The notes below the pieces were generated by a model. It made no database searches and was not told the origin of the DNA. It worked only from the letters and a program-made list of their open reading frames with translations. The position numbers were made by a program, and so were the translations under genes. This document shows positions 3,999 through 53,292 of a DNA stretch of 64,000 nucleotides, in pieces. The stretch is from a phage: the sequence record PZ154897.1. The stretch is one strand, 5' to 3'. Position 1 is the stretch's first letter. Every line of letters begins with the position of its first letter.

Positions 3999-4139
3999 TT
4001 ACCATACTAGTGAATGTAGTGCCATAATAACATCAGAAATGAAAAGCACGACTTGAATTAATCCGAACATTACTCCATAATATAGTGCTATCAATAAAAT
4101 AGCAAGGGCTACCGAGTAGCCCAAGATTTTCTTAATCAT
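3999..4139 (-). CDS. small membrane peptide (46 aa)
   Basis: hand-translated; ATG overlaps ac stop; ends 5 nt before gene 52 ATG. Confidence 0.45.
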   Translation of the reverse strand: MIKKILGYSVALAILLIALYYGVMFGLIQVVLFISDVIMALHSLVW

Positions 4140-4287
4140 TAGATAACAACGCAAATGTTAAATATGCACACATACCCTGGGCTAAAGCTTGTGAAAACAC
4201 ACTGCTAGCATCGATACAGATAGTTAAAACACATGCTACTATCCAACAAATAAATGAAATAACTCCTAATAGTTTTGCGATATTCAT
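4132..4287 (-). CDS. ac: Ac-like membrane peptide (51 aa)
   Basis: 51-aa hydrophobic ORF with GAGGA SD, between stp and 52 as in T4. Confidence 0.7.
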   Translation of the reverse strand: MNIAKLLGVISFICWIVACVLTICIDASSVFSQALAQGMCAYLTFALLSND

Positions 4288-4294
4288 ATTTTCC

Positions 4295-4375
4295 TCACTG
4301 GCGTCCGAAGACGCCTTTAGTTTTAAGATTGTTACGATAGAACTGCATCACATGTTCATTATGGAAATTACTCAT
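4295..4375 (-). CDS. stp: Stp peptide (26 aa)
   Basis: hand translation gives [26 protein letters not shown], matching T4 Stp as I recall it; TAATG overlap with ndd stop. Confidence 0.9.
4300..4315 (-). other. UUCG-tetraloop RNA hairpin inside stp coding sequence
   Basis: ggcgtc-cgaa-gacgcc on + strand = GGCGUC UUCG GACGCC on mRNA. Confidence 0.5.
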
Positions 4376-4830
4376 TAATATGCCTGCAAAACAAATTTAA
4401 AGTTATCAGCCAACATACGGTTCATTTCTTCAAGCGTTTGATACTCAGAATGATGATTACGAGTAAACGCTAAAGCTAACTGACCTTTTCCAAATCCCGT
4501 CGTCAGAGGTTTCATCTTAGAAGCAGGTAGATAAAATACTGTGTATGGAACATTATTATTTGCAATAGTACGCGCAAGCTGAGATCGACGCTGGCGAATA
4601 TGACTTAGAACTGCACTGAATCCTTGCTTAGAACGCTGATTACCTACATAAAATCGTGCAGATACACATGGACTATCAAATGGACCACCAAATTTGCTCA
4701 CTAAAAAGTAAAATCCAGGGTTAGACAAAATGTCTTTATGCGGAGTTCCAAAAACCCATTCACCGCCCTTGATTGTACCAATAACAGTTGCGCCTGCATT
4801 ATTCAAATCAGTAACAGTCATATATTTCAT
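4375..4830 (-). CDS. ndd: Ndd, host nucleoid disruption protein
   Basis: 151-aa ORF, T4 Ndd length; position next to stp. Confidence 0.8.
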
Positions 4831-4889
4831 GTTAATTTCCTCTAATTATTTTCTACTCCAAGGCCGCATGAATGCACACGGCCGATAAA

Positions 4890-5105
4890 TTAATCGTCGC
4901 AGTCGACGCTCAATTCCCAGAACTCTTCTACAGTATAAGTTTCAGTATCATTTTCAATACAGAAACGTTCATTGCTGTTGTTTGCTAAAGTAGCGTTAAC
5001 TGTCATTTTCTCGCTAGTGCTCTTAAGAGGAGAAATACGAATTAACTGATCACCATTATCTAAGCAAAAAATTTCGCCAACTTTTATATCTTTAAAAAAT
5101 TTCAT
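4890..5105 (-). CDS. hypothetical protein (71 aa)
   Basis: ORF. Confidence 0.5.
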   Translation of the reverse strand: MKFFKDIKVGEIFCLDNGDQLIRISPLKSTSEKMTVNATLANNSNERFCIENDTETYTVEEFWELSVDCDD

Positions 5106-5113
5106 AATTCACC

Positions 5114-5221
5114 TCAAGGAGTATAAAATCCAAATGCAGTTGTTGACCATCCCATCCAATATGGGATATTTGCGCCAATGTAAAATACAAGAATATAAAA
5201 CCAAATGCTTAGTAAATTCAT
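5114..5221 (-). CDS. micro-ORF, hydrophobic peptide (35 aa)
   Basis: hand-translated; ATG overlaps stop of upstream ORF (TAATG). Confidence 0.35.
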   Translation of the reverse strand: MNLLSIWFYILVFYIGANIPYWMGWSTTAFGFYTP

Positions 5222-5418
5222 TATTTTACACCATTCCAAATTGTTTCAACCACAGATTTCAAACCATTTTGGTGAATATCCATTCCGACAACCGCCATCA
5301 AATAGATTCCAACCACAACTGAACCCAAGGCGAAAATCAGCATGAAAATGAATAAAGCTGGAAAAATATTATCGAAAAACCATTCCATAAATGTAAAAGC
5401 ACTGCGTTTACGCTTCAT
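5221..5418 (-). CDS. small membrane protein (65 aa)
   Basis: ORF-track 5221..5439 trimmed to ATG with GAGGA SD. Confidence 0.5.
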   Translation of the reverse strand: MKRKRSAFTFMEWFFDNIFPALFIFMLIFALGSVVVGIYLMAVVGMDIHQNGLKSVVETIWNGVK

Positions 5419-5425
5419 ATTTTCC

Positions 5426-5539
5426 TCACATAAATCCAAAGTAAGCGTTTAATACATCAATCATTAAAATGATTGGGAATATACTTAAAACTACTAGTAT
5501 TATAACTACATTCCATATAGCTTTAACAATCTTTTTCAT
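5426..5539 (-). CDS. small membrane peptide (37 aa)
   Basis: internal ATG of ORF 5426..5674; GGAGG SD; early promoter directly upstream. Confidence 0.5.
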   Translation of the reverse strand: MKKIVKAIWNVVIILVVLSIFPIILMIDVLNAYFGFM

Positions 5540-5559
5540 TTTCTGTTCCTCCGTAGTTG

Positions 5560-5598
5560 ATAGGGTAATAATACCACAGAGGAACAGTCTTGTAAACA
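5560..5598 (-). promoter_or_regulatory. T4-type early promoter (GTTTAC -35 / TATTAT -10) with flanking 9-bp inverted repeat
   Basis: minus strand reads GTTTACaagactgttcctctgtggtATTATTA; near-identical to cassette at 60905-60962. Confidence 0.6.
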
Positions 5599-5604
5599 AC
5601 TTTT

Positions 5605-5703
5605 TTAAAAATATTCGTAATAAATGTGAATACCAACTACTACTGCTGAAACTTGCGCAACCCACCATGCACAAGCAATAAGTACAGAATTCAAAATTTT
5701 CAT
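5605..5703 (-). CDS. micro-ORF, hydrophobic peptide (32 aa)
   Basis: hand-translated; GAGG SD; ATGA overlap with upstream micro-ORF. Confidence 0.4.
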   Translation of the reverse strand: MKILNSVLIACAWWVAQVSAVVVGIHIYYEYF

Positions 5704-5786
5704 AATAACCTCATCACAAAAGTAAATGTTAAACAAATTAATGGAATACTAATTAACCAAACGAAACACCACCATAATGAACTCAT
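5700..5786 (-). CDS. micro-ORF, hydrophobic peptide (28 aa)
   Basis: hand-translated; ATGA overlap with stop of ORF 5783..6046. Confidence 0.4.
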   Translation of the reverse strand: MSSLWWCFVWLISIPLICLTFTFVMRLL

Positions 5787-6046
5787 AGTTCAATCTCAGC
5801 GATTTTCATTTCATTACTATTAATAGCCGCTTTAAGACTATCTGAAAGAATTACATTCCAGTGGTCATTCATATGACCATTAACTAAGCGTGTAATTTCT
5901 TCGGGAGTTGAAAAATAAGGCGTATCAGACTCCCAATGCGATAGTCCCAAGCGAGTATAAATCATACCTTCATCACCGCTAGAATATTCAACTGACACAA
6001 ACTCATCAGTTATTTTATGTTTAGCGTAATAAAATTTAAATTTCAT
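5783..6046 (-). CDS. hypothetical protein (87 aa)
   Basis: ORF with GGAGG SD and early promoter upstream. Confidence 0.55.
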   Translation of the reverse strand: MKFKFYYAKHKITDEFVSVEYSSGDEGMIYTRLGLSHWESDTPYFSTPEEITRLVNGHMNDHWNVILSDSLKAAINSNEMKIAEIEL

Positions 6047-6069
6047 TTTTACTCCTCCGTAGCTGATAG

Positions 6070-6104
6070 TTGTATAGTACCACGGTCCTTGTGGTATGTA
6101 AACT
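6070..6104 (-). promoter_or_regulatory. T4-type early promoter (TTTACA -35 / TACTAT -10)
   Basis: minus strand reads cagTTTACAtaccacaaggaccgtggTACTATA then conserved leader. Confidence 0.6.
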
Positions 6105-6119
6105 GTTTTGTGAAAATTT

Positions 6120-6677
6120 TTAAATGGAAAGATACCATCCGTTGTAGTTGCTTTTTCTTACAACCTTACGAAGGTCTTCTCTATCACCGATGAACTTCGG
6201 AGTGTACTGGATGACACCTGGATGAATTTCTTTAGTGTTGAATATAATTATACAGTCAGCGACTTGGTGATTCAGAATGGGCCCTAGATTTATTCCAGAA
6301 CCGTATGGATACTCTCCGCTGCATCCGGTTGTTACCGAAATCCAACGTGAGTCAGTTTGGTGTGTCTTAACTTCTACACGAAGCCCACAGTATTTTGGAT
6401 GCGCCAATACATCCCATGCGTATGTATACGGGTCATTAACATCCTCTTGGCCTTTGTTAACATACCCGCTTAGCCAATCTGCTACAAAAAACTCTGCATA
6501 TACAGCGATACGACATCTTTCAATAACTTCTGCTTTATCCTGATTAGGATTTTGTTTTAAAGAGTATCTTGCTGTATCAGCAATTTTGACCTTCATTTCA
6601 CTAGTCAAATCATTGTTCGATAGGGTAAATGTTGGAATCTGAAATAGTCTCTGTAAACCCGGATTCGTTTTCTGCAT
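6120..6677 (-). CDS. denB: endonuclease IV (DenB)
   Basis: 185-aa ORF, T4 DenB length; synteny between ndd region and rIIB. Confidence 0.75.
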   Translation of the reverse strand: MQKTNPGLQRLFQIPTFTLSNNDLTSEMKVKIADTARYSLKQNPNQDKAEVIERCRIAVYAEFFVADWLSGYVNKGQEDVNDPYTYAWDVLAHPKYCGLRVEVKTHQTDSRWISVTTGCSGEYPYGSGINLGPILNHQVADCIIIFNTKEIHPGVIQYTPKFIGDREDLRKVVRKSNYNGWYLSI

Positions 6678-6989: not shown

Positions 6990-7925
6990 TTTAAATTGTT
7001 CAGTAACGTCTTCAACTACTTCGTATTGGCAGGTACGCATTTTAGCATCGTTGTAATCAATTGGAATTGATACTACATCGCGAGGATGTACTTTAACTTT
7101 TACAACTCGGCTGGTTGAACTGCCAAAGTGACGAATATAAGATTTAGAACACACATGCAGACCATGAGAACAAGTTTGTGTATCATCGTCATTCACACGA
7201 GTACGTGGCATTTTAACTACTTTACCCGGACTGTTATCAAAGGTGTTTGAGTGACAGTCAAAGTAATTGCTACGAACTACTTTCCAAGCATAGAAGTAAC
7301 CATCTTCTGTAATTTCAATATCGTTTGCTACCAAGAAATCAAAGAGTCGAGATACCGCTTTTTGGCTTGGGTTTTCCAACAGATTTTCCAAGAACGGAAA
7401 ATAAAATTCAAAGTTTTCGCCTTTTTCCATCGAGTCAAGAATACGATCAACCAAACCAGACCGCAATTCAATATTTTGATAGAACAGGCTTCCACCTTCA
7501 ATTCGAACATCGCCGGAAATATATTTTTCAACAGCGCGACGAACATTAATTTTTTGTGCCGCTTCTTCCAATTTATCTGCAACAAGCAGATTAAGAATTT
7601 CCTGGAAGTTTGAATGAGTATTAGGAGTTGCGTTATAAGTTACACCGTCAACAGTAATTGAAATGAATTTTTTAGATGCATTCCAAATAATGTCAGATTT
7701 AGCAACTGGAGCAATAACTGCATCGCTATTAACTTTAACTGTAATATCACCGCTAATAGTAACTTTAGGGCGTTTAGCTTCTTCAGCATTTTTCAAAACA
7801 CGACGGATTGTGTCAACCGATACATCCTTCCAATAAGCCAATTCCTGTTGGGTGTAATTACCGCTTGAATACAGTTTAACAATTTCAGCTTGTTCGTTTT
7901 TGGTCAGGCATTTAATATTGTACAT
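6987..7925 (-). CDS. rIIB: rIIB membrane-associated protein
   Basis: 312-aa ORF, T4 rIIB length; adjacent to rIIA. Confidence 0.9.
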   Translation of the reverse strand: MYNIKCLTKNEQAEIVKLYSSGNYTQQELAYWKDVSVDTIRRVLKNAEEAKRPKVTISGDITVKVNSDAVIAPVAKSDIIWNASKKFISITVDGVTYNATPNTHSNFQEILNLLVADKLEEAAQKINVRRAVEKYISGDVRIEGGSLFYQNIELRSGLVDRILDSMEKGENFEFYFPFLENLLENPSQKAVSRLFDFLVANDIEITEDGYFYAWKVVRSNYFDCHSNTFDNSPGKVVKMPRTRVNDDDTQTCSHGLHVCSKSYIRHFGSSTSRVVKVKVHPRDVVSIPIDYNDAKMRTCQYEVVEDVTEQFK

Positions 7926-7936
7926 AATTTTCCTTA

Positions 7937-10114
7937 TTAGGCCGCAAGGGCCTTCATAGTTTTAGCGATTTGAGAAACTTCATCATCACTTAAAGAGTTG
8001 CGATATCCGATGAAGTCGGAAACAATACGGAATTTCTTGGTAAACTCAGCAACCATTTTATCACTGTTTTTTGAAGCATTATTTGATAATACATCAAAAA
8101 GATTAGTTACTGTCCAGATGTCATGACCGATGGTATCTCTTCCACCATTAAAATATACACCCTGTAATGAACTAACCATATTAGCAAGTCGTGTATATTC
8201 TTCAGAAACTTCATCTACACTGAAGTACTTCATCATAAAATCTAACTCAGGATACTTGATAATTTTATCAATATATCGTTTAGCTGAACTTGAATAACCT
8301 ACATACTTATCATAATCTACATCATCAAAAGCATCTACATATAAATCACGCAGAGTTTCAAAAATACATTGGCACTGACCGAGTTCTTTTACCTTTTTCT
8401 GTAAAAGCGGACGAATAACATAAAATTCATTAATGCCAATAAGATTAGCCATACGAATCAAAATATTCATAGATGGATGACAGAGAGATGTAGTACCATC
8501 CATAGAGAAAATATCAGAACGATGCATATACGCTACATAACCAGTAATTTCATCTGCTTCTGATGTGAGCGTAAACAGTTCCTCTTTTTCCCAGCGCCCA
8601 TCTTTAATTTCAAACTTAAATACTGTAGCAGCTTTAGGACGAGGAGCTTTACTTTTAACTACCTTTGGAATATAGCTTTTAACTAAAGCTTCAATTTCTG
8701 ACAAATAATGAATGTTAACTTCATCACTTTCAAACATTGCCATAATATCAGGAAGTAAATCAATCTGTGATTCTACTTCCGGATTAATAAACAGAAGACG
8801 CTCGTTGTGATGAATATTTAAAGTGTTATTAAATTCACTATCATCTAATGCACGTGCTAATCCACGGACAATATTAACACGATTTTTAATATTATCAATA
8901 ACGATATTAATTTTTGTTGTATTAATACCAAACAGACGATAACTTGATGCAACGGCTGAAGTTTCATGGCTTTGCTTAATGCGTTTCAGTCGAGGGTCAA
9001 GATTTACTTCATACACAACCCCTGCATTGCATAACTTACTGTCAGGTTCAAACATGCTTTGCATCTTCTTATATGACAGATTTTTAGTCGTGAATTTGAC
9101 CGAATTACTAATCATATAATCTCGAGCAGAATATCCCATCTTCATCAATTCACGGTATGTATGACGAGGAGATGTAGATTCTTTAAATCGTTTTACATCT
9201 TCATTAAATGCCTTCTCACTGAGCTCTTTAACACGCTCAATAATATTTTTACGAGTACGATCATCTAGTGAAAGAGCCTCACGCGATGGAGCAATATCAA
9301 GTGAACCCATTGGAAACTTAATGTAATTCACTTCATTACGAATGCTTAACCAGTTACGGTCTCTAATAACACCGTCTATAGGATAAACAATACCACCATA
9401 GATAGCATATAATCCACCACGATCTGGCCAGTATCTTTCTGGATTTACGCCGTAATAATCATCAAAATCAGGAAAATAATCAATTTCGCGGTCAAGACCA
9501 TTAATGATAGCCAAATCTTTGAATGGTCGCATGATATAAGAAACTTCATAAGCAAAGTTTCTAAAGTCTTTTTCTTCAACTGGAACTACGATTTCAATAC
9601 CAGTTTTATCGTCTGGACCCATTTCTTTTACGAATGTAGGTTTAATCTGCGGACCGTCACCATCCATGTAAGCTACATAACCACGAATTTCGCCTTTATG
9701 ATATGAAGTGATACTAAACGTATCAGTATAACTAAACGGAGATTTAGAACCTAAACCAAATCCACCAATGAAATCATTAGATTCAGCCTTAGATGAACTG
9801 AAGTATGAATTATACAACCCAGGAGAATTATCATCACCCTGAATATCAAAATCGCTCATACCCGGACCAAAATCTCGACAAACAAATCGCGGATCTAATC
9901 GTCCTGGAACTTGAATGATAAATTTTTCAGGATTTCCATTAAGAGCATGGGCATCAATCATGTTGGTAATCAATTCACGAACCACTGCGCGAATCTTGTT
10001 TGTATACAAATCAGATGACAGAATTTTAAATACTTTAGGAGACGCTGTGATGCTAAATGCTTTTGATTTAGAACCATTACCAAGAATTGTTTCTTTTTCA
10101 GTGGTGATAATCAT
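7937..10114 (-). CDS. rIIA: rIIA protein with GHKL-type ATPase domain
   Basis: 725-aa ORF, T4 rIIA length; N-terminal [10 protein letters not shown] / GLGSKSPF ATPase motifs. Confidence 0.95.
7939..7953 (-). other. short GC hairpin at rIIA/rIIB junction
   Basis: aggcc-gcaag-ggcct. Confidence 0.4.
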
Positions 10115-22506: not shown

Positions 22507-22707
22507 TCATTTTGAATGCTCTATAATTAATTTTAAGGCTTCTTCACTTACAAAAATTTCGTCAGGGCTTTCTTCTGCAACCCAATCAACCATACGAAGC
22601 TGATTAGATAAGAGCTCATATGTGAGCTCCTTGTCATAATCTTTAAATAGCTGGTCAATACGTTTCTTGTGGGCTTTCTTAAGTTGACGTTTATTTAAAC
22701 GAGCCAT
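22507..22707 (-). CDS. hypothetical protein (66 aa)
   Basis: ORF. Confidence 0.5.
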   Translation of the reverse strand: MARLNKRQLKKAHKKRIDQLFKDYDKELTYELLSNQLRMVDWVAEESPDEIFVSEEALKLIIEHSK

Positions 22708-23225
22708 TAATAACCTCGGTCTTGACGAGCGAAATTTTCAGCATTTTTCAGATAATAAAGTTTAAAGATTTCTTCAGCTGACATTCCAAGAGCAATGAAT
22801 TTATTCATGAAAAAGTGAAATTGATCAATCAGTTCAAATTTAATTTCAAGTTGATCTTCAGGAGATAAATCTTGAATTTTCTTGGATTGCATTTCAGAAT
22901 AACGTTTCTTCCAAGGTTTCCATACAGCAGAAGCTTCTTTTTCACCATTACTCATACCACCAAGAGAAGTATATAACTCGCGAGTTTCGTCTGCGATATA
23001 ATCGTCTTGGTTTCGCAGCCAAGCAAGAACTTCTCCTGCAGTTTCAAGTGAATCGGGATGACGATTTGTTTCTGGTTTATCATTAGCCAAACGAATCTGT
23101 AAATGCCGCTGCATGTCAAGCATAACCTGCAATGGGTCAATACTGTGCATAATATACTCAGCATATGCACGATTTGCTTTATCAACACCTTCGATCAAAT
23201 GAGCACATTCATTAAAGTGAGCCAT
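22707..23225 (-). CDS. 56: dCTP pyrophosphatase (dCTPase/dUTPase)
   Basis: MazG-like ORF; size and synteny next to dam; start at internal ATG uncertain. Confidence 0.8.
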   Translation of the reverse strand: MAHFNECAHLIEGVDKANRAYAEYIMHSIDPLQVMLDMQRHLQIRLANDKPETNRHPDSLETAGEVLAWLRNQDDYIADETRELYTSLGGMSNGEKEASAVWKPWKKRYSEMQSKKIQDLSPEDQLEIKFELIDQFHFFMNKFIALGMSAEEIFKLYYLKNAENFARQDRGY

Positions 23226-23285: not shown

Positions 23286-24077
<792 letters not shown>

Positions 24078-24335: not shown

Positions 24336-25360
24336 ATCTTAGCATATTTAGATAGCCGCATTTTAGCCATCAGCCCCTGCGCAATATTATTTTTCATATA
24401 TTCCATAATTTGTTCAGGGGTTGCACCTTCCTTTCTAATCATATCATTGACATCTTTTGATTTCCAGGGAGATTTATCCCAAAACATAACCCTTTCTCCT
24501 GCATCAACTAATTTAGTCATTCGTTTAATAGTGTCAGGGTGACGAGGTTCATTATCTAAAACCCATACACGTCTATCTTTAAATGGAACAATTTCTAGGT
24601 CTAATTGACCACCAGTAATAGCTATACCATTTTCAATAAAAAGTGAATCTATAGGTCCTTCTAGAACATATACATCACCATCTTTAACCCGTTCGACACC
24701 ATAGATTTTTGTTGCCTCAGGATAAGCTTTGATGGTGATATATTTTTGAGGAGCATCTTTCTTTAATGCGCGTCCTTGAAAAGACTCAGCTTTTCCATTA
24801 GCATTATAAATTGGAATAACAAGACGAGGCTCAGGTATTTCCTTTTTATATGTTCCTGGCGCTATACTATTAACTAATTTAGGCCATTCGGTTGTAAACC
24901 AAAGATATTTCCATTTATCCTTTGGAATACAGCGAGCTTTTACATATTTTATAATTGGATGGCCTTCCGCCAGTTTATCTAATCTAACACATGACGGAAG
25001 AGATTTAATTATTTTCTTCTCAGGTTGTTTAGGAAGTTCTTTAGGTTTTTCTACTGGACGACTTTTACCTTTTTCTTTTCTTATTTCAAAGATATACTCA
25101 CGATATAAATCAGGTTCAAACTCCTTTAGATATATTCCGATTGGTGCATGATAGTTACAGTTATAACAATGAATATTTCCTTCATTATTATCACCATAAT
25201 ACCATCCACGGGCTTTATTTTGGTCGGTTTTTGAATCTCCACAAACAGGACATCTAAACCGCAATTTAAAAGTTGAACTATTATTTACTTGTGTGAATTT
25301 AGGTAAATGAGCTAATGCACGGTATGCAAACTCATTATCAATCCAAGGTATTGATGACAT
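24332..25360 (-). CDS. 61: DNA primase
   Basis: 342-aa ORF, T4 gp61 length; N-terminal Cys4 zinc motif; TOPRIM region. Confidence 0.93.
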   Translation of the reverse strand: MSSIPWIDNEFAYRALAHLPKFTQVNNSSTFKLRFRCPVCGDSKTDQNKARGWYYGDNNEGNIHCYNCNYHAPIGIYLKEFEPDLYREYIFEIRKEKGKSRPVEKPKELPKQPEKKIIKSLPSCVRLDKLAEGHPIIKYVKARCIPKDKWKYLWFTTEWPKLVNSIAPGTYKKEIPEPRLVIPIYNANGKAESFQGRALKKDAPQKYITIKAYPEATKIYGVERVKDGDVYVLEGPIDSLFIENGIAITGGQLDLEIVPFKDRRVWVLDNEPRHPDTIKRMTKLVDAGERVMFWDKSPWKSKDVNDMIRKEGATPEQIMEYMKNNIAQGLMAKMRLSKYAKI

Positions 25361-25362
25361 TT

Positions 25363-25527
25363 TTACTCTTCTTTTTCTTTAGATTCCTCTTTTTTCTTTT
25401 TAGGAATCTGTTCAGGGCCTTTATTTACTACAGCGCCTGATGTTGTTCCAGTAGAGATATTTTCAGGACTACCACCTGAATCTCCAGCGACCATATCTTC
25501 TTTGATAAATTCTTTATATGTTTTCAT
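25363..25527 (-). CDS. small charged protein (54 aa)
   Basis: hand-translated; fills gap upstream of primase. Confidence 0.4.
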   Translation of the reverse strand: MKTYKEFIKEDMVAGDSGGSPENISTGTTSGAVVNKGPEQIPKKKKEESKEKEE

Positions 25528-28446: not shown

Positions 28447-28791
28447 TTAAAAGAATTTAAATTTTTTCTTTGACCTTTTATTAAATGCATCTTGTAGTTG
28501 CATTGTAATACATTTTTCTACATGAGGAGCTAACTCAGCTTTTCTTTCTTGGTCAAGAACAGCAAAGTCCATTACAACCTTTCCATCAACCCAATCCAGT
28601 TTAGTTACATACACTATATGTGTAGAACCATCTTCTAGTTTAATGACAATCTCCTGGATAACATTTTCCATGGCAGATTTAATTATCTTAAGAGATTCAT
28701 TAAAAAGACGTTCTTTTCTTTCTTCTTCCCCCTCCGAAGAGGGGGATTCATCGATAATTTCTAGATCTAAATCTAAATCATCTTTATTCAT
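28447..28791 (-). CDS. 40: gp40-like head vertex assembly chaperone
   Basis: ORF downstream of uvsX; first ATG overlaps uvsX stop (ORF track starts at GTG 28809). Confidence 0.55.
   Translation of the reverse strand: MNKDDLDLDLEIIDESPSSEGEEERKERLFNESLKIIKSAMENVIQEIVIKLEDGSTHIVYVTKLDWVDGKVVMDFAVLDQERKAELAPHVEKCITMQLQDAFNKRSKKKFKFF
28728..28745 (-). other. stable UUCG-tetraloop hairpin inside gene 40 coding sequence
   Basis: ccccctc-cgaa-gaggggg (7-bp GC-rich stem). Confidence 0.5.
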
Positions 28792-29965
28792 TAAATTCTT
28801 CCATATCACTTAACTGATCTAGGTCAGTTTCTAAATCAGCTGCTGATTTGTTTTTACTTTCTGGAGATTTAAATTTTTCAACCTTTGAGTTAATCAATTC
28901 ATCAACTTCAGCTTCAACAATTTCATTACTATCAATAGCACCTAACTGATAAGCACGTTTAATAGCATCTCGGAATGGCTGATGCTTAAATAAAGGACCC
29001 CAGAATGTAGTGCAGTTGGTATCTTTTGCACGCCAAGATTTTTCTTCGCGAATCATCTCGCCTGTTTCTTCGTCAAGAAATTCACGAGCATACCAGCCAT
29101 TTTTAGGTTTTACTACAAATCCTAATTCAAGAGCCATATCTAACAATCCAGAATAAGGATCGATACCACCGTCAAATTTAACATCAATAAAGAATTTACT
29201 TTTTTCTTTAACAGTACGAGATTTTTCTACATTTAGAACAAATTGATACCCCTGAAGATCAGAACCATCTTTAATCTGGCGCTTACCGATAATGAATACA
29301 GTATCAGCCGAATACATTACGCCTGTACCACCTGTCATCACGGTTTTACTAAACATTTCAATTGTTTCAATTGTATGGTTAACCGCAACACATGGAATAT
29401 TTTTAATGCTAAAATAAGGAGTAACAATACGGAATAATGACTTCAGTGATTTAGCACGAGTCATATCTGCCACAGATTTTTCATTCAAGGCATCTTCCGT
29501 TTCTTTCTTAGAAGCCATATTACCGATTGAGTCGATGAATACAATAACTTTTTCACCGCGCTCAATAGCTTCAAGCTGATTCACCATATCAATTTTCAGC
29601 TGTTCAACTGACTGGATTGGCGTATGAATTACTCGTTCCGGGTCAACCCCCATGGATCGCAAATAAGCTGGAGTAATACCAAATTCACTATCATAGAATA
29701 GACAAACCGCGTCAGGATATTTGTTCAAATATGCCGCAACCATAGTCAAAGACATATTTGATTTAAAGTGTTTAGAAGGCCCTGCGAAAATAGTTAAACC
29801 AGACTGCATACCGCCATCAATCGCACCAGAAATAGCAATATTGAGCATTGGAATTTTTGTACGGATTACATCCTTTTCATTAAAGAATTTAGATGTAGTC
29901 AGTTCAGCAGTCATTTTAGAAGTGGAAGCTTTAATCAAACGGGATTTTAAATCTGCAATAGACAT
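28784..29965 (-). CDS. uvsX: UvsX recombinase (RecA-like)
   Basis: 393-aa ORF; RecA-fold Walker motifs; synteny 41-40-uvsX. Confidence 0.95.
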   Translation of the reverse strand: MSIADLKSRLIKASTSKMTAELTTSKFFNEKDVIRTKIPMLNIAISGAIDGGMQSGLTIFAGPSKHFKSNMSLTMVAAYLNKYPDAVCLFYDSEFGITPAYLRSMGVDPERVIHTPIQSVEQLKIDMVNQLEAIERGEKVIVFIDSIGNMASKKETEDALNEKSVADMTRAKSLKSLFRIVTPYFSIKNIPCVAVNHTIETIEMFSKTVMTGGTGVMYSADTVFIIGKRQIKDGSDLQGYQFVLNVEKSRTVKEKSKFFIDVKFDGGIDPYSGLLDMALELGFVVKPKNGWYAREFLDEETGEMIREEKSWRAKDTNCTTFWGPLFKHQPFRDAIKRAYQLGAIDSNEIVEAEVDELINSKVEKFKSPESKNKSAADLETDLDQLSDMEEFNE

Positions 29966-30018
29966 TCATTTTTTCCATAGGCATCATTATATTTTCCTCA
30001 CTGGTTAAAGATAGAGTA

Positions 30019-30044
30019 ATTATAACACAATAAATTTAGGCATT
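30019..30044 (-). promoter_or_regulatory. possible MotA-dependent middle promoter for uvsX
   Basis: minus strand aaTGCCTAaatttattgtgtTATAAT (box one mismatch from TGCTT, 12-bp spacing). Confidence 0.45.
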
Positions 30045-30891
30045 AATCAACCGCTATTGGATGAATAGCATTAAACTTATGAAACGCTTCTGATTTTTCT
30101 TTGCGCGAAACACACATGCGAAGAACCTTTAATGGCTCGTCTTCTTCACCCAACGATTTTCGTTTTTCAATATTAGAAGTTTTCCAACGAGCTTGCTCTG
30201 GAAACTCTTTATTGATTTGCTCAAGAGCTCTATTATGTTTTGAATTACTACGAATTGAGCTGCATCCACCGGGAGCCTGCGCTTTTCCAGATACAACCAA
30301 ATATTTGAACAAGGCCAAATGCGGATAACCTTGATTAATTAAATTGAGAAATGCATACATATCTTCGCATAAATCAATTTTTCCATACCCAATTTGTTCT
30401 GTTGTAAGTTTTCCAAGGTCATACCATGTATTCGTGAATCCATATGAATTTTCACGGTAATTACCCCAAGATGAAGTAATTTTAAAAATAGGTAGACGAG
30501 CATGGCCATGATAATACCCGCAATCCATGGCATCTTCAACGTATTGAATCAATTCATAGAACTGCTCACGGGTTAACTGATTAATTTTATCTACGCAGCG
30601 ACGATCATCTTTCTTTCGCATTGAACTCATACGAATAGTAGTATCATCATCAATCATCCAAATTCGTTGACCTGCATACATATCAGTAATCGCTTTACGA
30701 GTACCAGCAATTCCATTGACATCATCAGGAATAGTTATAATTTTAGCTCTAGACCCATAGGCATCATAATAAGCTTTTTCTTCATGTTCACGCACTACAA
30801 TATGGGGTTCATAATCAGTCGGAAACATATCAAGGGCAGAAACTGCCCCTACACGTTGATAACTTGGAATTACAAATTGAATCATTTCCAC
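30043..30891 (-). CDS. glycosyltransferase with DxD motif, candidate HMC-DNA glucosyltransferase (not T4 beta-gt)
   Basis: 282-aa ORF between 42 and uvsX; MIDDDT motif; T4 beta-gt as I recall it is 351 aa and unlike this sequence. Confidence 0.6.
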   Translation of the reverse strand: MEMIQFVIPSYQRVGAVSALDMFPTDYEPHIVVREHEEKAYYDAYGSRAKIITIPDDVNGIAGTRKAITDMYAGQRIWMIDDDTTIRMSSMRKKDDRRCVDKINQLTREQFYELIQYVEDAMDCGYYHGHARLPIFKITSSWGNYRENSYGFTNTWYDLGKLTTEQIGYGKIDLCEDMYAFLNLINQGYPHLALFKYLVVSGKAQAPGGCSSIRSNSKHNRALEQINKEFPEQARWKTSNIEKRKSLGEEDEPLKVLRMCVSRKEKSEAFHKFNAIHPIAVD

Positions 30892-31622
30892 TCACCGTTA
30901 TAATCTTTTTTCATAATATGAGTTTCGCCAGTATTCCACCAATGATCAACCAAGTAAAAATGACGAGAATATACATGAAGACTTCCAACATTCCATATAA
31001 TAGAACCTGCTTTATACTGACGAGTTGAATCGCCTGCATTCAAATCAGATACTAATTTATCTAATACGTATTTTTGCCATGCATAATCATTACGGAATCC
31101 GAAGACCACGTCATTTGAGCGCATGCTTACTACTGCATTGACTTTCTTATCACGAATCAGGTACTGTACTGTATTAGTACACATGAAATCTGACATGCCA
31201 TCTTTATTGTAGTCAAACTGCATAGATGGACGAGTATAAATCATGATACCACGTCGAGAATCAGGATTTTGACCAAGTTCAGCTAAACACATGTCATATT
31301 GAGCATAGTTATCTTCTGACCAGATAGCCCAACCATAATTCGAGTTAATTTCACCTTTAGAAGATGCTACCTGTTGCCAAATCTTTGGTGTTTCACCTGG
31401 AATATCTTTAACAAACAGACTTTGAGACTTGTACCATTCAAGTTCACGCTGAATGTATTCATCATTAAGAGCGCCAAAAATAAACGGTTCATCTGCTACA
31501 AATGATGCGCCAATAATTTCAATAGTTTTAACACCAGTTTTATCAACTACGAAATCTTTTTCCTTTAATGCAGTTCCCAAATGAAGACGGATTTCTTCAA
31601 CTGTCATAGAGTCACTAATCAT
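30882..31622 (-). CDS. 42: dCMP hydroxymethylase
   Basis: 246-aa ORF, T4 gp42 length; thymidylate-synthase-like fold. Confidence 0.92.
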   Translation of the reverse strand: MISDSMTVEEIRLHLGTALKEKDFVVDKTGVKTIEIIGASFVADEPFIFGALNDEYIQRELEWYKSQSLFVKDIPGETPKIWQQVASSKGEINSNYGWAIWSEDNYAQYDMCLAELGQNPDSRRGIMIYTRPSMQFDYNKDGMSDFMCTNTVQYLIRDKKVNAVVSMRSNDVVFGFRNDYAWQKYVLDKLVSDLNAGDSTRQYKAGSIIWNVGSLHVYSRHFYLVDHWWNTGETHIMKKDYNGEWK

Positions 31623-31775
31623 TTAAACCTCAATTGATACATTCATATTTAACTTGTAACAGTAATAAACCCCAACCTAAAATAATAGTTGGAATCATAA
31701 GAGGAACCGTTACACTATAGTATATACTTATTATAATCATCAAGATTAAAAGCAATGCTGATATAATTTTGCTTT

Positions 31776-32027
31776 TCATTCCTTCTCTCTGATGATAATT
31801 ACCTGATTTGGCTGCGCAGACTTTTTAGTTTCACCTGCAATTGACCAAATAAATGTAATAAACCAACCAATAATTGACCAGTTAAACAGTAAAGATGTGA
31901 AAAAGATTCCTACTGTCGATTTTGACCCACGCATCAAGGCGATAAACCATGGAAGCATGTATATAATAATAGCCAACACGCCTGAAACTAAAACCACAAA
32001 AATTGAACCTGCTACTAAAGTTTCCAT
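31776..32027 (-). CDS. imm: Imm superinfection immunity membrane protein
   Basis: 83-aa ORF with two hydrophobic helices; T4 Imm length and position. Confidence 0.8.
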   Translation of the reverse strand: METLVAGSIFVVLVSGVLAIIIYMLPWFIALMRGSKSTVGIFFTSLLFNWSIIGWFITFIWSIAGETKKSAQPNQVIIIREKE

Positions 32028-38924: not shown

Positions 38925-39641
38925 ATGAATTATAAACTAATTTATGAAAAGTTAATCTCTAATGCTAAATCTCGAAAACTTGATTGCTATACTGAATCTC
39001 ATCACATTATACCACGCTGTTTAAACGGTAGTGATGATGCTTCAAACTTAGTAGATTTAACGCCAGAAGAGCACTATGTAGCTCATCAACTTTTAGTAAA
39101 AATTTATCCTTCTGAACCAAAATTAGTCTATGCTGCTAACATGATGACAGTTTCTACGAAATACGCTAAACGTAACAATAAAACTTTCGGCTGGATTCGT
39201 CGTAAACTCTGGGAAATAGAAAAGAATAAAGAGTTCTCCAAAGAGACACGAAAGAAAATGTCCGACGCAGTAGCTAATAAAGCAAGACTAACTTGTCCAC
39301 ATTGCGGTAAGTCTGGATTAAGCGGGAATATGAATCGATGGCATTTTGATAACTGCCCAAATCATCCCAATCCTAAAGTTAGACCGCCAATGTCTAAAGA
39401 ACACAGAAATAATATCTCAAACGGGCTTAAAGCAATCGTTCTTGAAGAAACATCCTGCGAATTCTGCGGAATGATAGGCAAGAAATGCGTTATCGCAGCG
39501 CATAGAAATTTCTGCAAGAAAAATCCAAATGGACGCAAGAAAACTGAAAAGACTGGTACTTGCGTCCATTGTGGTAAAGTTACCACTTTCGGAAATTTAT
39601 CAAGATGGCATAATGATAATTGTAAATATAAACCTAGCTAA
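38925..39641 (+). CDS. free-standing HNH homing endonuclease with C-terminal zinc-finger repeats
   Basis: ESHHIIPRCLNGSDDASNLVDLTPEEHYVAH HNH motif; repeated CxHCGK...RWHxDNC units; opposite strand to all neighbours. Confidence 0.8.
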   Translation: MNYKLIYEKLISNAKSRKLDCYTESHHIIPRCLNGSDDASNLVDLTPEEHYVAHQLLVKIYPSEPKLVYAANMMTVSTKYAKRNNKTFGWIRRKLWEIEKNKEFSKETRKKMSDAVANKARLTCPHCGKSGLSGNMNRWHFDNCPNHPNPKVRPPMSKEHRNNISNGLKAIVLEETSCEFCGMIGKKCVIAAHRNFCKKNPNGRKKTEKTGTCVHCGKVTTFGNLSRWHNDNCKYKPS

Positions 39642-41337: not shown

Positions 41338-42192
41338 TCACAATGAAGAAAATTCTTTAACTAAAGCCTGTAATGAAGCCTCTATTGGATATCCATTCTT
41401 AACTAACATTTTCCTAAACATCACATGTTTAGGACGATTATATGATATCCACAATTCATACAATTTATCTTTATTATCCCAATGATAGCCTTTTCGTCGA
41501 GATGCTATATGAGCTTTTCTAATCTCCGGATTTTTCCAACTAGCAGCTACTGAATTTGATATAGCTATTTTATATTCAGGTTTTGATAAAGCAGCGCGAA
41601 CAGCCCTTTGGTGTTTAATTTTATTTTCTTCGTTATTAAACCATTCCCTTGAAGCCATTGAAATTTTTTGTTTTGTTTTAAAATTATTTAATCTTTCTTT
41701 GTTATCTTTTCTATTTTTTGCTACTGAAAAATATTTTAATGCCCTTTCTCTAGCAGCATTTCTATTTTGCGGATTTGAATAATACTGTTGAAGCCTTTTT
41801 GATATTGTGTCACTTACATCTTGTTTTATAAAACTATATTCAGCAGCTATTAAATCAACTTCGGCTAAAGATAAATTTTTATATGTTTTTCCTGACATCA
41901 TTCTATTTAAAGCATTTAGCATTTTTCCATTTTTACCTTTTGCTAATAAGAAATGTGCTTTGAAATGATTGAAATGACTTAAATTAACTAAATTCCATGT
42001 AGATTTTAAATATTCAGGAAATATTGATTTAGGAAGCACGTGATGTGCTTCCGTTTTACCTGGAGTTTTAACAGTTGAATTCATAGAAATAAAATTAATG
42101 TAAGACTTGGCGTCTTCTTCGCTCAACACTAATTTTTCAACTAATTCCTTTATTAAAAATTCATCATTAATATCAAGTTTAAAATTCTTCAC
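41338..42192 (-). CDS. free-standing HNH homing endonuclease with NUMOD-like repeats
   Basis: TEAHHVLPKS...NLVNLSHFNHFKAH HNH motif; repeated basic helix units; GTG start with AAGGA SD. Confidence 0.7.
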   Translation of the reverse strand: MKNFKLDINDEFLIKELVEKLVLSEEDAKSYINFISMNSTVKTPGKTEAHHVLPKSIFPEYLKSTWNLVNLSHFNHFKAHFLLAKGKNGKMLNALNRMMSGKTYKNLSLAEVDLIAAEYSFIKQDVSDTISKRLQQYYSNPQNRNAARERALKYFSVAKNRKDNKERLNNFKTKQKISMASREWFNNEENKIKHQRAVRAALSKPEYKIAISNSVAASWKNPEIRKAHIASRRKGYHWDNKDKLYELWISYNRPKHVMFRKMLVKNGYPIEASLQALVKEFSSL

Positions 42193-49372: not shown

Positions 49373-49843
49373 TTAATCATGTTTCCACACCCCATCGGTA
49401 TTTGACCAAAGTCGCTGATTATCTGAACCTCGCCACAGCTTTTTGGTTGGAAGATTTTTCTCATACTTCCCATCAATAATAACATCAACATATTTAAGCA
49501 TTTCTAGTTGTTTAATATCTTCAAACTTGTACCCTGTCCACAACCAAATGCTTTTATTTGGATAAAGATTTTTTACAGTTTGAACAATGCAATGAACATC
49601 ATCTCGGTTATCAGGATAAAGAGGGTCACCTCCAGTTATAGTTAATCCTTCTATATAATCATTATTCAAACATTCAATTAATTGTTCTAGTGTTTCACCA
49701 GTAAATGGAACGCCATTTCTAGCATTCCATGTTGATTTATTATAACACCCTTCGCATTTATGCAAACAACCTGTAACGAAAAGAACTGTCCTGCATCCAG
49801 GACCATTAACAAAGCAGCACGGGTATATTCTGTCATAATTCAT
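49373..49843 (-). CDS. nrdG: anaerobic ribonucleotide reductase activating protein (radical SAM)
   Basis: CxxxCxxC cluster motif; 156 codons from internal ATG; adjacent to nrdD. Confidence 0.88.
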   Translation of the reverse strand: MNYDRIYPCCFVNGPGCRTVLFVTGCLHKCEGCYNKSTWNARNGVPFTGETLEQLIECLNNDYIEGLTITGGDPLYPDNRDDVHCIVQTVKNLYPNKSIWLWTGYKFEDIKQLEMLKYVDVIIDGKYEKNLPTKKLWRGSDNQRLWSNTDGVWKHD

Positions 49844-50670
49844 AATAATATCCAATTTTTCCAAGCTTCATCAGTAGAATTACAGCGTTTTAGTATAAGA
49901 TGTCTAGAAACTTTTATGGCATTTGAGCACTTTTTAATTGAATCATATTTAATACCGTCAACTGAAACGGTTTTGCTAGTTGGAGAAATTTTTCCATACA
50001 TTGGATTTTTTGAACCAACTTGAAGTCCTTTTAAAGCTTTTGAAAGCTTTTGTCTAGATTCCAATGACATGGGAGAATTCTTTTTACCTTCAATAATTCG
50101 CTTGCGATGAAGTTCGCGTTCTTCTTCACTCAAAGAATTGTAATATTTTTTAACACCGTTTGATATAGATAATTTATCTTTCTCAGACCGCTCTCCAGCT
50201 AATTTACTTCTAACATCTTTTCGCTTCATAGCTATGCTTACGGCTTTATTTAAATTTGCTTGATGCTCTGGCGTACGTTTATATTTCTTTAAAGCACGTG
50301 AAATAGCTATTTTAGTTTCTTCTGTTCTCTTTTTACCTTTATTTGCTAAACTATTTTTGCGGCGATGTTCAAGTGTCTGTTCATAGGCAGTTCCACCTTT
50401 TCCACCAGGTTTAATATTATATGTATTTTCTTTTAGACAATACTCTTCGGTTACAAGTTCAGCTTCTTTATCATACATTTGTTTTTCATTATCAAAAACA
50501 TGTAAAATTTCTTTATTAAAATTTTTTCTACCATATTTTAATAAAGCGGCACGAATCAATGTTCCTGACCCCATATAACCGTCATTTATGTTATCGGTGC
50601 TATGCGCACCGATATATTCCTTTGAATTAATTATATTTGTTATTTTATAAATTATATAATACCTATGCAT
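49840..50670 (-). CDS. free-standing GIY-YIG homing endonuclease with NUMOD repeats and C-terminal HTH
   Basis: YIIYKITN...YIGAHS...GYMGSG GIY-YIG module; overlaps nrdD 3' end by 8 nt. Confidence 0.8.
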   Translation of the reverse strand: MHRYYIIYKITNIINSKEYIGAHSTDNINDGYMGSGTLIRAALLKYGRKNFNKEILHVFDNEKQMYDKEAELVTEEYCLKENTYNIKPGGKGGTAYEQTLEHRRKNSLANKGKKRTEETKIAISRALKKYKRTPEHQANLNKAVSIAMKRKDVRSKLAGERSEKDKLSISNGVKKYYNSLSEEERELHRKRIIEGKKNSPMSLESRQKLSKALKGLQVGSKNPMYGKISPTSKTVSVDGIKYDSIKKCSNAIKVSRHLILKRCNSTDEAWKNWILL

Positions 50671-52480
50671 GTTTTACTCGTTTTACCATTTCTTTCATTT
50701 TACCTAAATTCCATGGAACAACGCTAGGAGTTCCAAGATATCCGCATGTTCTTCTTATTGTGTTCATCTTTTTAGGATCAGTTTCTCCACAAATAGAACA
50801 AACAAATCCGTTTTCAGTAGGAGTCATTTCATGGGTACTTCCGCATGTAAAACATTTATCTACCGGCATGTTAACACCAAAATAATCTAAATGTTGTGCA
50901 GCATAATCCCATATGGCCTCAAGGCCTTTTAAGTTATTTTTCATATCAGGAAGTTCAACATAAGAAATGTGACCACCTGTCGCAATGAAATGATATGGCG
51001 CTTCACGAGAAATCTTTTCAAACGGAGTAATATTTTCTTCTACTGAAACGTGGAAACTGTTAGTGTACCAGCCTTTATCAGTAACATCCTTTACACTTCC
51101 ATATTTTTCAGTATCAAGTTTACAGAAGCGATAGCACAGGTTTTCAGCAGGTGTAGAATACAAGCTAAAAGCAAAACCGGTTCTTTCAGTCCACTGCTTA
51201 AGACGAGTATTCATTTTAGTTAAAATTTCTTGTCCAATATCACGACCAACAAGAATATTCAATTCGTGAATACCAATGTATCCTAGGGACACTGAACTTC
51301 TACCGTTTTTAAATAACTCAATTATATCATCATCGGGTTTAAGACGAACCCCGAATGCACCTTCTTGGTAAAGAATAGGAGCAACAGTAGCTTTAACTCC
51401 TTTTAAGGAACTAATTCTACACATCAATGCTTCAAAACATAAATCAATTCGTTCATTGAACAATTCGGCAAATTTCTGTTCATTGAACTGTGTTCCAATA
51501 TAAGAATCTAGCGCAATGCGAGGAAGATTCAGTGTTACAACGCCAAGATTATTACGTCCATCAAGAATTTCATTACCAGTCGAATCTTTCCATACGCTCA
51601 AGAAACTGCGGCAACCCATTGGAGAAACAGGAATAGATGAACCTGTGATAGCTTTATTGTTCTTAGCCGAAATGATGTCAGGATACATTCTTTTGCTTGC
51701 ACACTCTAAAGCAAGCTGTTTAATATCATAGTTCGGATCGTCTTTATAAAGATTAACACCTTCTTCAACGAACATAACAAGTTTAGGGAAAATAGGAGTT
51801 ATCCCGTCACGACCAAGACCTTTAATACGATTTTTCAGAATTGCTTTCTGAATCATTCGTTCAGTCCAGTCAGTTCCCGTACCAAATGTAATTGTTACAA
51901 AAGGCGTTTGTCCGTTTGAACTAAAGAGAGTATTTACTTCATATTCATAAGCTTGGAACGCATCGTATACATCTTTTTCTGTTTTAGATTGGGCATAATT
52001 CAATGCATCTGCGATTTGCCATTTTTCCGCGTCCTCAATATGTTTCGCATAGGTGCGTTTAACATAAGGAGAAAGTACTTTATCTACATTCGCAAAAGTC
52101 GTTCCACCATATTGATGGGAAGCAACCTGTGCAGTAATTTGTGCCATAATTGCAGTAGCAACACCGATTGATTTAGGAGTTTCAATCTGTGCATTACCGA
52201 GCTTAAACCCGTTCTCAAGCATTCCTTTTAAATCTACTAAACAACAATTAGTAAAAGGCAATGATATACTGTAATCTAAATCATGAAAATGAATTAATCC
52301 GACGTTATGAGCATTTACAATATGGCTTGGAAGAATACTACAAGCGATATGTTTAGAAACAATACCAGCCATTAAATCTCTTTTTGTTGGAAAGACACGA
52401 GAATCTTTGTTGGCATTTTCGGTATTTAATTCTTTATCTTTATTTGAAATAAAATTTAAAACATCTTTCTCTAAAGACAT
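50663..52480 (-). CDS. nrdD: anaerobic ribonucleoside-triphosphate reductase (glycyl radical enzyme), intron-less
   Basis: 605-aa continuous ORF; C-terminal RRTCGYLG glycyl radical motif; Cys4 zinc site. Confidence 0.95.
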   Translation of the reverse strand: MSLEKDVLNFISNKDKELNTENANKDSRVFPTKRDLMAGIVSKHIACSILPSHIVNAHNVGLIHFHDLDYSISLPFTNCCLVDLKGMLENGFKLGNAQIETPKSIGVATAIMAQITAQVASHQYGGTTFANVDKVLSPYVKRTYAKHIEDAEKWQIADALNYAQSKTEKDVYDAFQAYEYEVNTLFSSNGQTPFVTITFGTGTDWTERMIQKAILKNRIKGLGRDGITPIFPKLVMFVEEGVNLYKDDPNYDIKQLALECASKRMYPDIISAKNNKAITGSSIPVSPMGCRSFLSVWKDSTGNEILDGRNNLGVVTLNLPRIALDSYIGTQFNEQKFAELFNERIDLCFEALMCRISSLKGVKATVAPILYQEGAFGVRLKPDDDIIELFKNGRSSVSLGYIGIHELNILVGRDIGQEILTKMNTRLKQWTERTGFAFSLYSTPAENLCYRFCKLDTEKYGSVKDVTDKGWYTNSFHVSVEENITPFEKISREAPYHFIATGGHISYVELPDMKNNLKGLEAIWDYAAQHLDYFGVNMPVDKCFTCGSTHEMTPTENGFVCSICGETDPKKMNTIRRTCGYLGTPSVVPWNLGKMKEMVKRVKHA

Positions 52481-53292
52481 AATTCTAATTTATCCTTTTG
52501 AAATTCTTCGTCTAAATATGGGTTCCAACCCATTTTAAACCTTTTGATGAAATTATCAATTCTAAATTTCGGTAAGTTTAAATCCGCAAAAATAGATGAT
52601 TTACTTTTAAAATATGGACCTAAATAATCATATAAAATTTCTGCGTATTTTAACCATAATATACAAGTACCAGATTTAATTGCTCTCGGAGTTTTCCAAG
52701 GTTTTACACCATACATCGGATTTCCACTTCCTTTATGCCTGATAGAAGATGAAATTCCAATTTTAATTTTAGCTTCCTTTGTGTGCGAAAATCCATGATG
52801 TGGATTTTCTTTCCAGTATTTTTTAGAAGCTTCTGATATTTTCTTTCTGGCTAAATTAGTATGATGCTTTCCATAAAATCCATGATTTTTACCTTTATTA
52901 CGATTTCTTTTAATCATGGTTATTGATTGCTTTTCTCTAGTTTCTTTAGAAGGAGAAATACCATACGTTGTAAATTGACCGTCAGCATATGCTAAATTGA
53001 AATACTCTTTATTCCATATATCTTTTTCTATATTCTTTTGAAATTCAGCTTCAATGCTAGTTATTTGTTCATCTCCGACTAATTGAAAATATAATATTTC
53101 AACTTTCGGCGTTTCTTTCAACAGGGCTTTTTGAAATTCGGAAGATGACGAAGACGAATAATAAAATTTACCATTTTTATCAATAATATTCGTTCCGTCA
53201 AAAGTGCAATTGGTTTTACTTCCAATATAATAATATGGCGGGGTTTTAGCATTAATTCTACTAATAAATGATAGTTTATATACTACATTCAT
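52471..53292 (-). CDS. free-standing GIY-YIG-like homing endonuclease
   Basis: VYKLSFISRI...YYYIGS module plus basic repeat units; ATGA overlap with gene 49 stop, 10-nt overlap with nrdD start. Confidence 0.65.
   Translation of the reverse strand: MNVVYKLSFISRINAKTPPYYYIGSKTNCTFDGTNIIDKNGKFYYSSSSSSEFQKALLKETPKVEILYFQLVGDEQITSIEAEFQKNIEKDIWNKEYFNLAYADGQFTTYGISPSKETREKQSITMIKRNRNKGKNHGFYGKHHTNLARKKISEASKKYWKENPHHGFSHTKEAKIKIGISSSIRHKGSGNPMYGVKPWKTPRAIKSGTCILWLKYAEILYDYLGPYFKSKSSIFADLNLPKFRIDNFIKRFKMGWNPYLDEEFQKDKLELCL

Follow-up and report, generated by a model that had tools for sequence, protein, structure and literature searches.

In phages T2 and T6, the ba-gt gene (also g-gt or TAGT) encodes an enzyme usually named beta-glucosyl-HMC-alpha-glucosyltransferase (EC 2.4.1.28). 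The T2 and T6 genes were reportedly cloned by Winkler and Rueger in 1993. The enzyme decides whether hmC in phage DNA bears a single glucose or two joined as gentiobiose and, with that, which bacterial defences act on the DNA, so that its recognition is of use for phage annotation and host-range prediction. A T2-type ba-gt together with a-gt was described by Thomas et al. in 12 of 14 T4-like RB phages (PMC6024577), and a 2026 survey reports the combination of alpha-GT and beta-GT in 6 of 753 phage genomes, with alpha-GT (or beta-GT) plus TAGT forming the vast majority (PMC13216743).

The products of the pathway have been measured by HPLC/MS in ten Tequatrovirus phages that possess alpha-GT and TAGT and lack beta-GT. 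Their DNA is reported to contain hmdC, alpha-glucosyl-hmdC, and alpha-gentiobiosyl-hmdC but to be free of beta-glucosyl-hmdC; in Geo, EL, and BGP the three forms occur at about 1:2:2, while QOTSP and six others have about one-third hmdC and two-thirds gentiobiosyl-hmdC (PMC13390438). In T2, gentiobiosyl-hmC is given as about 5% despite the presence of ba-gt (PMC6024577, PMC13390438, bioRxiv 10.64898/2026.02.25.707755).

The biological role of the second glucose has been studied in T6. A delta-ba-gt mutant, described as having only alpha-glucosylated hmC (at about 75% of cytosines, as its authors presume), is more sensitive to Brig1, an enzyme that the DNA of wild-type T6 withstands in vitro (PMC11078745). 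Similarly, BapA is reported to release glucose from T6 delta-g-gt DNA, not from wild-type T6 DNA; gentiobiosyl-hmC cannot be deglucosylated by this enzyme (bioRxiv 10.64898/2026.02.25.707755). Other defences do act on such DNA: BrxU cut the DNA of all ten measured Tequatrovirus phages (PMC13390438), and GmrSD has been reported to target gentiobiosyl-hmC too (PMC13216743).

The locus between gene 42 and uvsX

The corresponding locus was analysed in a 64-kb stretch of phage DNA (hereafter, the window) out of a genome of ~168 kb. The window as a whole belongs to Tequatrovirus; phages G28, Aplg8, and Lutter share ~96% identity with it, and none matches it exactly. Its relevant features are collected in Table 1.

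Table 1. Features of the ba-gt locus, pathway partners, and other genes in the window
Feature	Position	Strand	Basis or remark
gene 56-like dCTPase (nucleoside triphosphate pyrophosphohydrolase)	22707..23225	-	PHROG 173, E 2.7e-44
dam-type DNA adenine methyltransferase	23286-24068	-	PHROG 56; 97% identical to Geo's
uvsX	28784..29965	-	flanks ba-gt
spacer, ba-gt stop to uvsX start, 77 nt	29966..30042	-	ORF listing
ba-gt (g-gt / TAGT) coding sequence	30043..30885	-	ORF, PHROG 842, Pfam PF20691, PP01/T2 identity, predicted GT-A fold
D175 codon, E174-D175 pair, candidate catalytic base	30361..30363	-	D175 in 60/60 homologs, E174 in 49/60
D79-D80-D81 codons, DxD motif	30643..30651	-	conserved in diverged homologs
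R11 codon (CGT), N-terminal IPSYQR motif	30853..30855	-	R in 60/60 homologs; CAT (His) in T2
ATGA, gene 42 TGA stop overlapping ba-gt start	30882..30885	-	read from sequence
gene 42, dCMP hydroxymethylase	30882..31622	-	Pfam thymidylate synthase family, PHROG 160
homing-endonuclease-like ORF, HNH or mob-like	38925-39641	+	PHROG 655; flanks gene 46
homing-endonuclease-like ORF, HNH or mob-like	41338-42192	-	PHROG 655; flanks gene 46
alpha-gt, DNA alpha-glucosyltransferase, 400 aa	43832..45034	-	PF11440 780 bits, PHROG 2888
two seg-like ORFs, NUMOD3 motifs	49840-50670, 52471-53292	-, -	PHROG 314 and 7504; flank nrdD

The ORF listed at the locus (30043..30891, minus strand) begins with GTG and encodes 282 aa, and in this form the gene had been described in a sequence-only reading. 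The ORF and its flanks, gene 42 and uvsX, were borne out, but the length was not: two codons downstream of the GTG lies an ATG (30885), from which ba-gt comprises 843 bp with a TAA stop and encodes 280 aa. This ATG is more likely to be the true start than the upstream GTG because it overlaps the gene 42 stop within an ATGA, is preceded by a Shine-Dalgarno-like GGTGAG element, and reproduces the length of ba-gt annotated in T2 and PP01 (likewise 280 aa, 843 bp). The same 4-nt overlap is annotated in T2, PP01, QOTSP, and Geo, and through it the translation of ba-gt may be coupled to that of gene 42.

On the other side, the spacer between ba-gt and uvsX has the same length as annotated in T2, PP01, T6, QOTSP, and Geo, where the order uvsX, ba-gt, 42 is also the same; neither segA nor any other ORF lies within it. 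Two small plus-strand ORFs inside ba-gt (75 and 78 aa) are unsupported and were dismissed as chance. Scanning of positions 29700-31800 gave 12 promoter-like sites versus 9.5 expected and one terminator-like site versus 0.9 expected. The latter is a GC-rich hairpin, TAGGGGCAGTTTCTGCCCTTG, at 30831-30851 on the minus strand, inside ba-gt codons 12-18; given the number expected by chance, it is probably without meaning.

The gene very probably encodes a beta-glucosyl-HMC-alpha-glucosyltransferase of the T2/T6 type, as was proposed in the sequence-only reading, and as such would make gentiobiosyl-hmC after the action of alpha-gt. The protein matches PHROG 842, ‘beta-glucosyl-HMC-alpha-glucosyltransferase’, over its full length (E 3.6e-89), and residues 3-207 match positions 2-205 of the 205-position Pfam profile PF20691 (TET-associated glycosyltransferase, TAGT) with 38.8 bits, the gathering score being 27.5. 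In tblastn comparisons, the PP01 counterpart proved 100% identical, and that of T2, annotated as ‘b-gt: beta-glucosyl-HMC-alpha-glucosyl-transferase’, 98.2% identical over 280/280 aa. The homology search suggested earlier against the T2/T6 glucosyltransferases agrees with the proposal; the T6 protein differs by six substitutions when lesions private to the T6 records are left out. The synteny with T2, T6, and PP01 and the presence of a full-length alpha-gt agree with this assignment; the type of enzyme was recognised properly, and solely its name has to be changed to the usual one given above.

Relatives are numerous: by tblastn, matches spanning 80% or more of the protein occur in 686 phage records, and near-identical ba-gt DNA is found in 491, mostly from Tequatrovirus phages of Escherichia, Shigella, Salmonella, and Yersinia. 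Besides the six substitutions relative to T6, the protein differs by five from T2, four from QOTSP, and eight from Geo; no difference from the latter two falls at a conserved family position. At the codon level, 34 synonymous and no non-synonymous changes separate the gene from that of PP01, and 34-43 synonymous and 3-8 non-synonymous changes separate it from six other relatives. Synonymous changes thus far outnumber non-synonymous ones, indicating that the intact gene is under strong purifying selection. The near-identical records and the PP01 comparison also rule out a chance ORF at 30043..30891.

Other genes required for the route from hmC through alpha-glucosyl-hmC to gentiobiosyl-hmC are all encoded in the window, namely gene 42, the dCTPase gene, and alpha-gt. 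At the DNA level, the segment 30900-33000, which includes gene 42, and the gene 42 region of T4 are 95.6% identical; the dCTPase gene shows ~96% DNA identity to a Geo region annotated as dCTP pyrophosphatase. The alpha-gt gene had been noticed from the letters alone, and its product indeed proved to be a full-length protein matching PF11440 and, from end to end, the T4 AGT structures 1XV5 and 1Y6F (E about 1e-255); its identity to Geo's alpha-gt is ~91%. Further modifiers may be encoded elsewhere in the genome.

In comparison with T4 (blastn), homology ends at window position 29953, six nt short of the T4 uvsX start, and restarts at 30900, within the last codons of gene 42, so that ~946 bp of the window stand where T4 has ~1.94 kb with segA and beta-gt. 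The supposed lack of resemblance to T4 beta-gt (351 aa) holds: the best blastp E between the two proteins is 5.4, T4 beta-gt has no tblastn match at E<=1 anywhere in the window, and a Pfam search of the ba-gt protein gives no match to PF09198 (beta-gt). There is also no detectable similarity of the ba-gt protein to T4 SegA (best E about 5), and tblastn with SegA reveals neither the gene nor a remnant of it between uvsX and ba-gt. The reported absence of segA is correct for this locus; seg-type genes are present elsewhere in the window, where T4 SegA has a tblastn match at 50326-50664 (46% identity).

Although one segment does replace the other, to see ba-gt as a substitute for the T4 segment is a T4-centred wording of the common state and turns the usual situation around. 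It is alpha-gt with ba-gt that represents the common arrangement and T4's that is rare, as follows from the 6/753 genomes of the survey and from the collection searched here, where the T4 beta-gt gene matches 29 phage records versus 491 for ba-gt. The GC content is 36.9% in ba-gt and 36.0% in its flanks; it is 30.9% in T4 beta-gt and 30.3% in T4 segA (T4 segment extract 4571-6456). These values suggest that the segA plus beta-gt cassette of T4, not ba-gt, was the later arrival at the locus.

Phages RB55 (KM607002) and RB59 (KM607003) carry, at about 24364-25419 each, a T4-type beta-gt 100% identical to T4 b-gt. Its product is misnamed ‘beta-glucosyl-HMC-alpha-glucosyl-transferase’, an annotation mix-up that could mislead surveys based on keywords.

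The four free-standing homing-endonuclease-like ORFs in Table 1 lie where the window fails to align with phage Geo, and the one at 49840-50670 resembles T4 SegA in its N-terminal part (46% identity). The gene TRBGEO_034, adjacent to dam in Geo, is without a counterpart in the window. A ‘restriction enzyme-like’ gene has been reported to occur only in Geo, EL, and BGP (PMC13390438).

Conserved residues, fold, and putative mechanism

An exhaustive search of representatives yielded 350 members of the TAGT family at E<=1e-3, while a word-indexed search gave 11 clusters. Residue conservation was derived from an alignment of 60 of the 350 representatives, 19-64% identical to the query. Residues R11, D80, D175, G186, and G207 are invariant in all 60 homologs, and D79, D81 (59/60 each), G206, and R212 (58/60 each) nearly so. 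The stretch RIWMIDDDTTIRM, in which a DxD motif had been seen, is indeed present and corresponds to residues 73-85 numbered from the ATG at 30885; its DDD is family-wide, D80 being invariant and each of its neighbours missing from one homolog.

An AlphaFold2 model of the protein was built on a 9-sequence alignment (mean pLDDT 70.5, pTM 0.72). According to this model, ba-gt has a GT-A fold with the conserved DxD, the DDD motif coming after a beta-strand. The model is confident at residues 1-80 and weak at 127-151 and 193-211, and so lends no support to the acceptor (DNA) surface or to the role of D175. A sequence search found no solved structure of a ba-gt relative, giving chance matches at E about 1; the nearest solved folds to the model are polysaccharide and teichoic-acid GT-A enzymes. 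By likeness to inverting GT-A/GT2 enzymes, DDD may bind a divalent metal and the diphosphate of UDP-glucose, and D175 is a candidate catalytic base.

The pathway may then be pictured as follows. The product of gene 42 would make the 5-hydroxymethyl-dCMP precursor, and the gp56-like dCTPase would remove dCTP, keeping the unmodified nucleotide out of phage DNA, into which the polymerase would put hmC. Alpha-gt (GT-B) would add an alpha-linked glucose to hmC in DNA, creating the acceptor for ba-gt (GT-A), which would transfer a second glucose from UDP-glucose to the 6-OH of the first in beta-1,6 linkage to give gentiobiosyl-hmC. In the putative inverting mechanism, D79/D81 would bind metal and UDP, D175 would serve as the base, and R11 would contact the nucleotide. 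Gentiobiosylation would mask alpha-glucosyl-hmC from the Brig1 glycosylase and the BapA deglucosylase, and the modified DNA would remain sensitive to the type IV enzymes GmrSD and BrxU.

Both the chemistry and the defence phenotype of the window phage are carried over here from the literature on orthologs. An effect on modification-dependent defence, which had been anticipated from the sequence, agrees with what is reported for T6 (Brig1, PMC11078745; BapA, bioRxiv 10.64898/2026.02.25.707755).

Extent of gentiobiosylation and rival explanations

The extent of gentiobiosylation cannot be read from the presence of ba-gt: the reported values are about 5% in T2 and about 72% in T6, both with ba-gt, and ~40% in Geo versus ~67% in QOTSP, both with R11. 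In the T2 protein, compared in extracted loci (LC348380, 3501-4343; AP018813, 7283-8125), the sole departures from RB14 and G29 are R11H and P251S. When 120 nt around codon 11 were compared among 463 records, solely the T2 records and SV76 were identical to T2; RB14 and G29, the two records with one mismatch that were checked, differ from T2 at codon 11. The window allele has neither substitution, R11 and P251 being retained.

These observations allow a tentative idea, which we regard as possible rather than probable, that the ba-gt allele sets the gentiobiosylation level, with T2 being a natural hypomorph (R11H/P251S) and the window allele being fully active, as in T6. If true, it would explain the long-known difference between T2 and T6; the point concerns T2 and adds no new property to the ba-gt of the window. 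Discussion of T2 ba-gt as a hypomorph was not found in the available parts of the literature cited here. As the allele keeps both residues, substantial gentiobiosylation, roughly 40-70% of hmC, is predicted for the window phage, and we expect this rather than a T2-like low level. With respect to the Geo-like (1:2:2) and QOTSP-like (about two-thirds gentiobiosyl) groups, the signs are mixed: the window shares dam with Geo but not the additional gene beside it, its ba-gt is nearer to that of QOTSP (four substitutions versus eight), and its alpha-gt is only ~91% identical to that of Geo.

Two T6 assemblies bear lesions in ba-gt. In MH550421 (extract 4138-4980), Q10 is changed to a TAG stop, and the gene is annotated from Met20 (261 aa), while in AP018814 (= NC_054907; extract 7135-7974), a 3-nt deletion removes one Asp of DDD. 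The assemblies are independent and the lesions private, neither occurring in any other record; they could be laboratory-stock changes or sequencing errors.

The most serious alternative is that the window enzyme is a weak ortholog like that of T2, in which case the DNA would contain mostly mono-alpha-glucosyl-hmC and a few percent of gentiobiosyl-hmC. T2, with its low reported value, does carry a gene 98.2% identical to it, and by substitution count the protein stands marginally nearer to T2 than to T6 (five versus six). However, R11H, at a position occupied by R in every aligned homolog, and P251S are private to T2 and absent from the window allele, and all ten measured Tequatrovirus phages, among them the R11-carrying QOTSP and Geo, are reported with at least 40% gentiobiosyl-hmC (PMC13390438); a weak enzyme is therefore improbable. 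Still less credible is a specificity unlike that of T2/T6 ba-gt, i.e., a different donor sugar, a different linkage, or transfer straight onto hmC. TAGT is a broad family, as its 350 representatives indicate, and its members are described with alpha-GT, with beta-GT, or alone (PMC13216743), so that specificities must vary within it; yet identity to the T2, T6, QOTSP, and Geo enzymes is 96-100%, none of the 4-8 substitutions touches a conserved family position, and the alpha-gt partner and the locus are unchanged, which makes such a departure very unlikely.

One might also imagine a glycosyltransferase acting off DNA, on the host envelope or a protein, considering that the nearest solved folds belong to enzymes of polysaccharide and teichoic-acid synthesis and that close relatives are without a solved structure. 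The deletion of the T6 ortholog, however, is reported to alter DNA modification (PMC11078745; bioRxiv 10.64898/2026.02.25.707755), and the Pfam TAGT family is defined by association with DNA-base-modifying enzymes. A decaying gene, in turn, is at odds with an intact reading frame under strong purifying selection, and these two options, even taken together, have hardly any probability left. The preferred reading thus remains a T2/T6-type ba-gt that would add the second glucose of gentiobiosyl-hmC.

Comparison with known systems

The window ba-gt is an ordinary representative of a family already characterised by experiment, and it is found where such genes normally lie. It belongs to established biology, being part of the majority arrangement among T4-like coliphages, and brings no new insight.

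In the slot beside gene 42, T4 beta-gt (PF09198; PDB 1JG7, as cited in PMC13216743) is comparable in that it uses UDP-glucose and forms a beta-glycosidic bond on phage hmC DNA. It differs in fold (GT-B versus the predicted GT-A), in length (351 versus 280 aa), and in acceptor, which is the bare hydroxymethyl of hmC for beta-gt and would be the 6-OH of alpha-glucosyl-hmC for ba-gt. In T4, it is also accompanied by the homing endonuclease segA, absent at the window locus.

With the GT2-type GT-A enzymes TarP (6h1j), the cellulose synthase BcsA (4p00), and SpsA (1h7l), the modelled protein has the Rossmann-like GT-A fold in common, and it also bears their N-terminal IPxY-type motif, post-strand DxD, and acidic ED pair. 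Within the TAGT family (PF20691), it possesses the family-wide R11, D79-D81, D175, G206-G207, and R212. Many members of this family are described with beta-GT or alone, their products being given as unknown (PMC13216743), whereas the window ba-gt is one of the Tequatrovirus subfamily, whose partner is alpha-gt.

The closest systems are T2 and T6 themselves, with which the 280-aa length, the gene 42/uvsX locus, the ATGA overlap, and the alpha-gt partner are all common and from which nothing of substance distinguishes the window gene. In detail, its residues 11 and 251 are R and P, as against H and S in T2, and it is free of the private lesions of both T6 assemblies, the stop at Q10 and the loss of one Asp of DDD.
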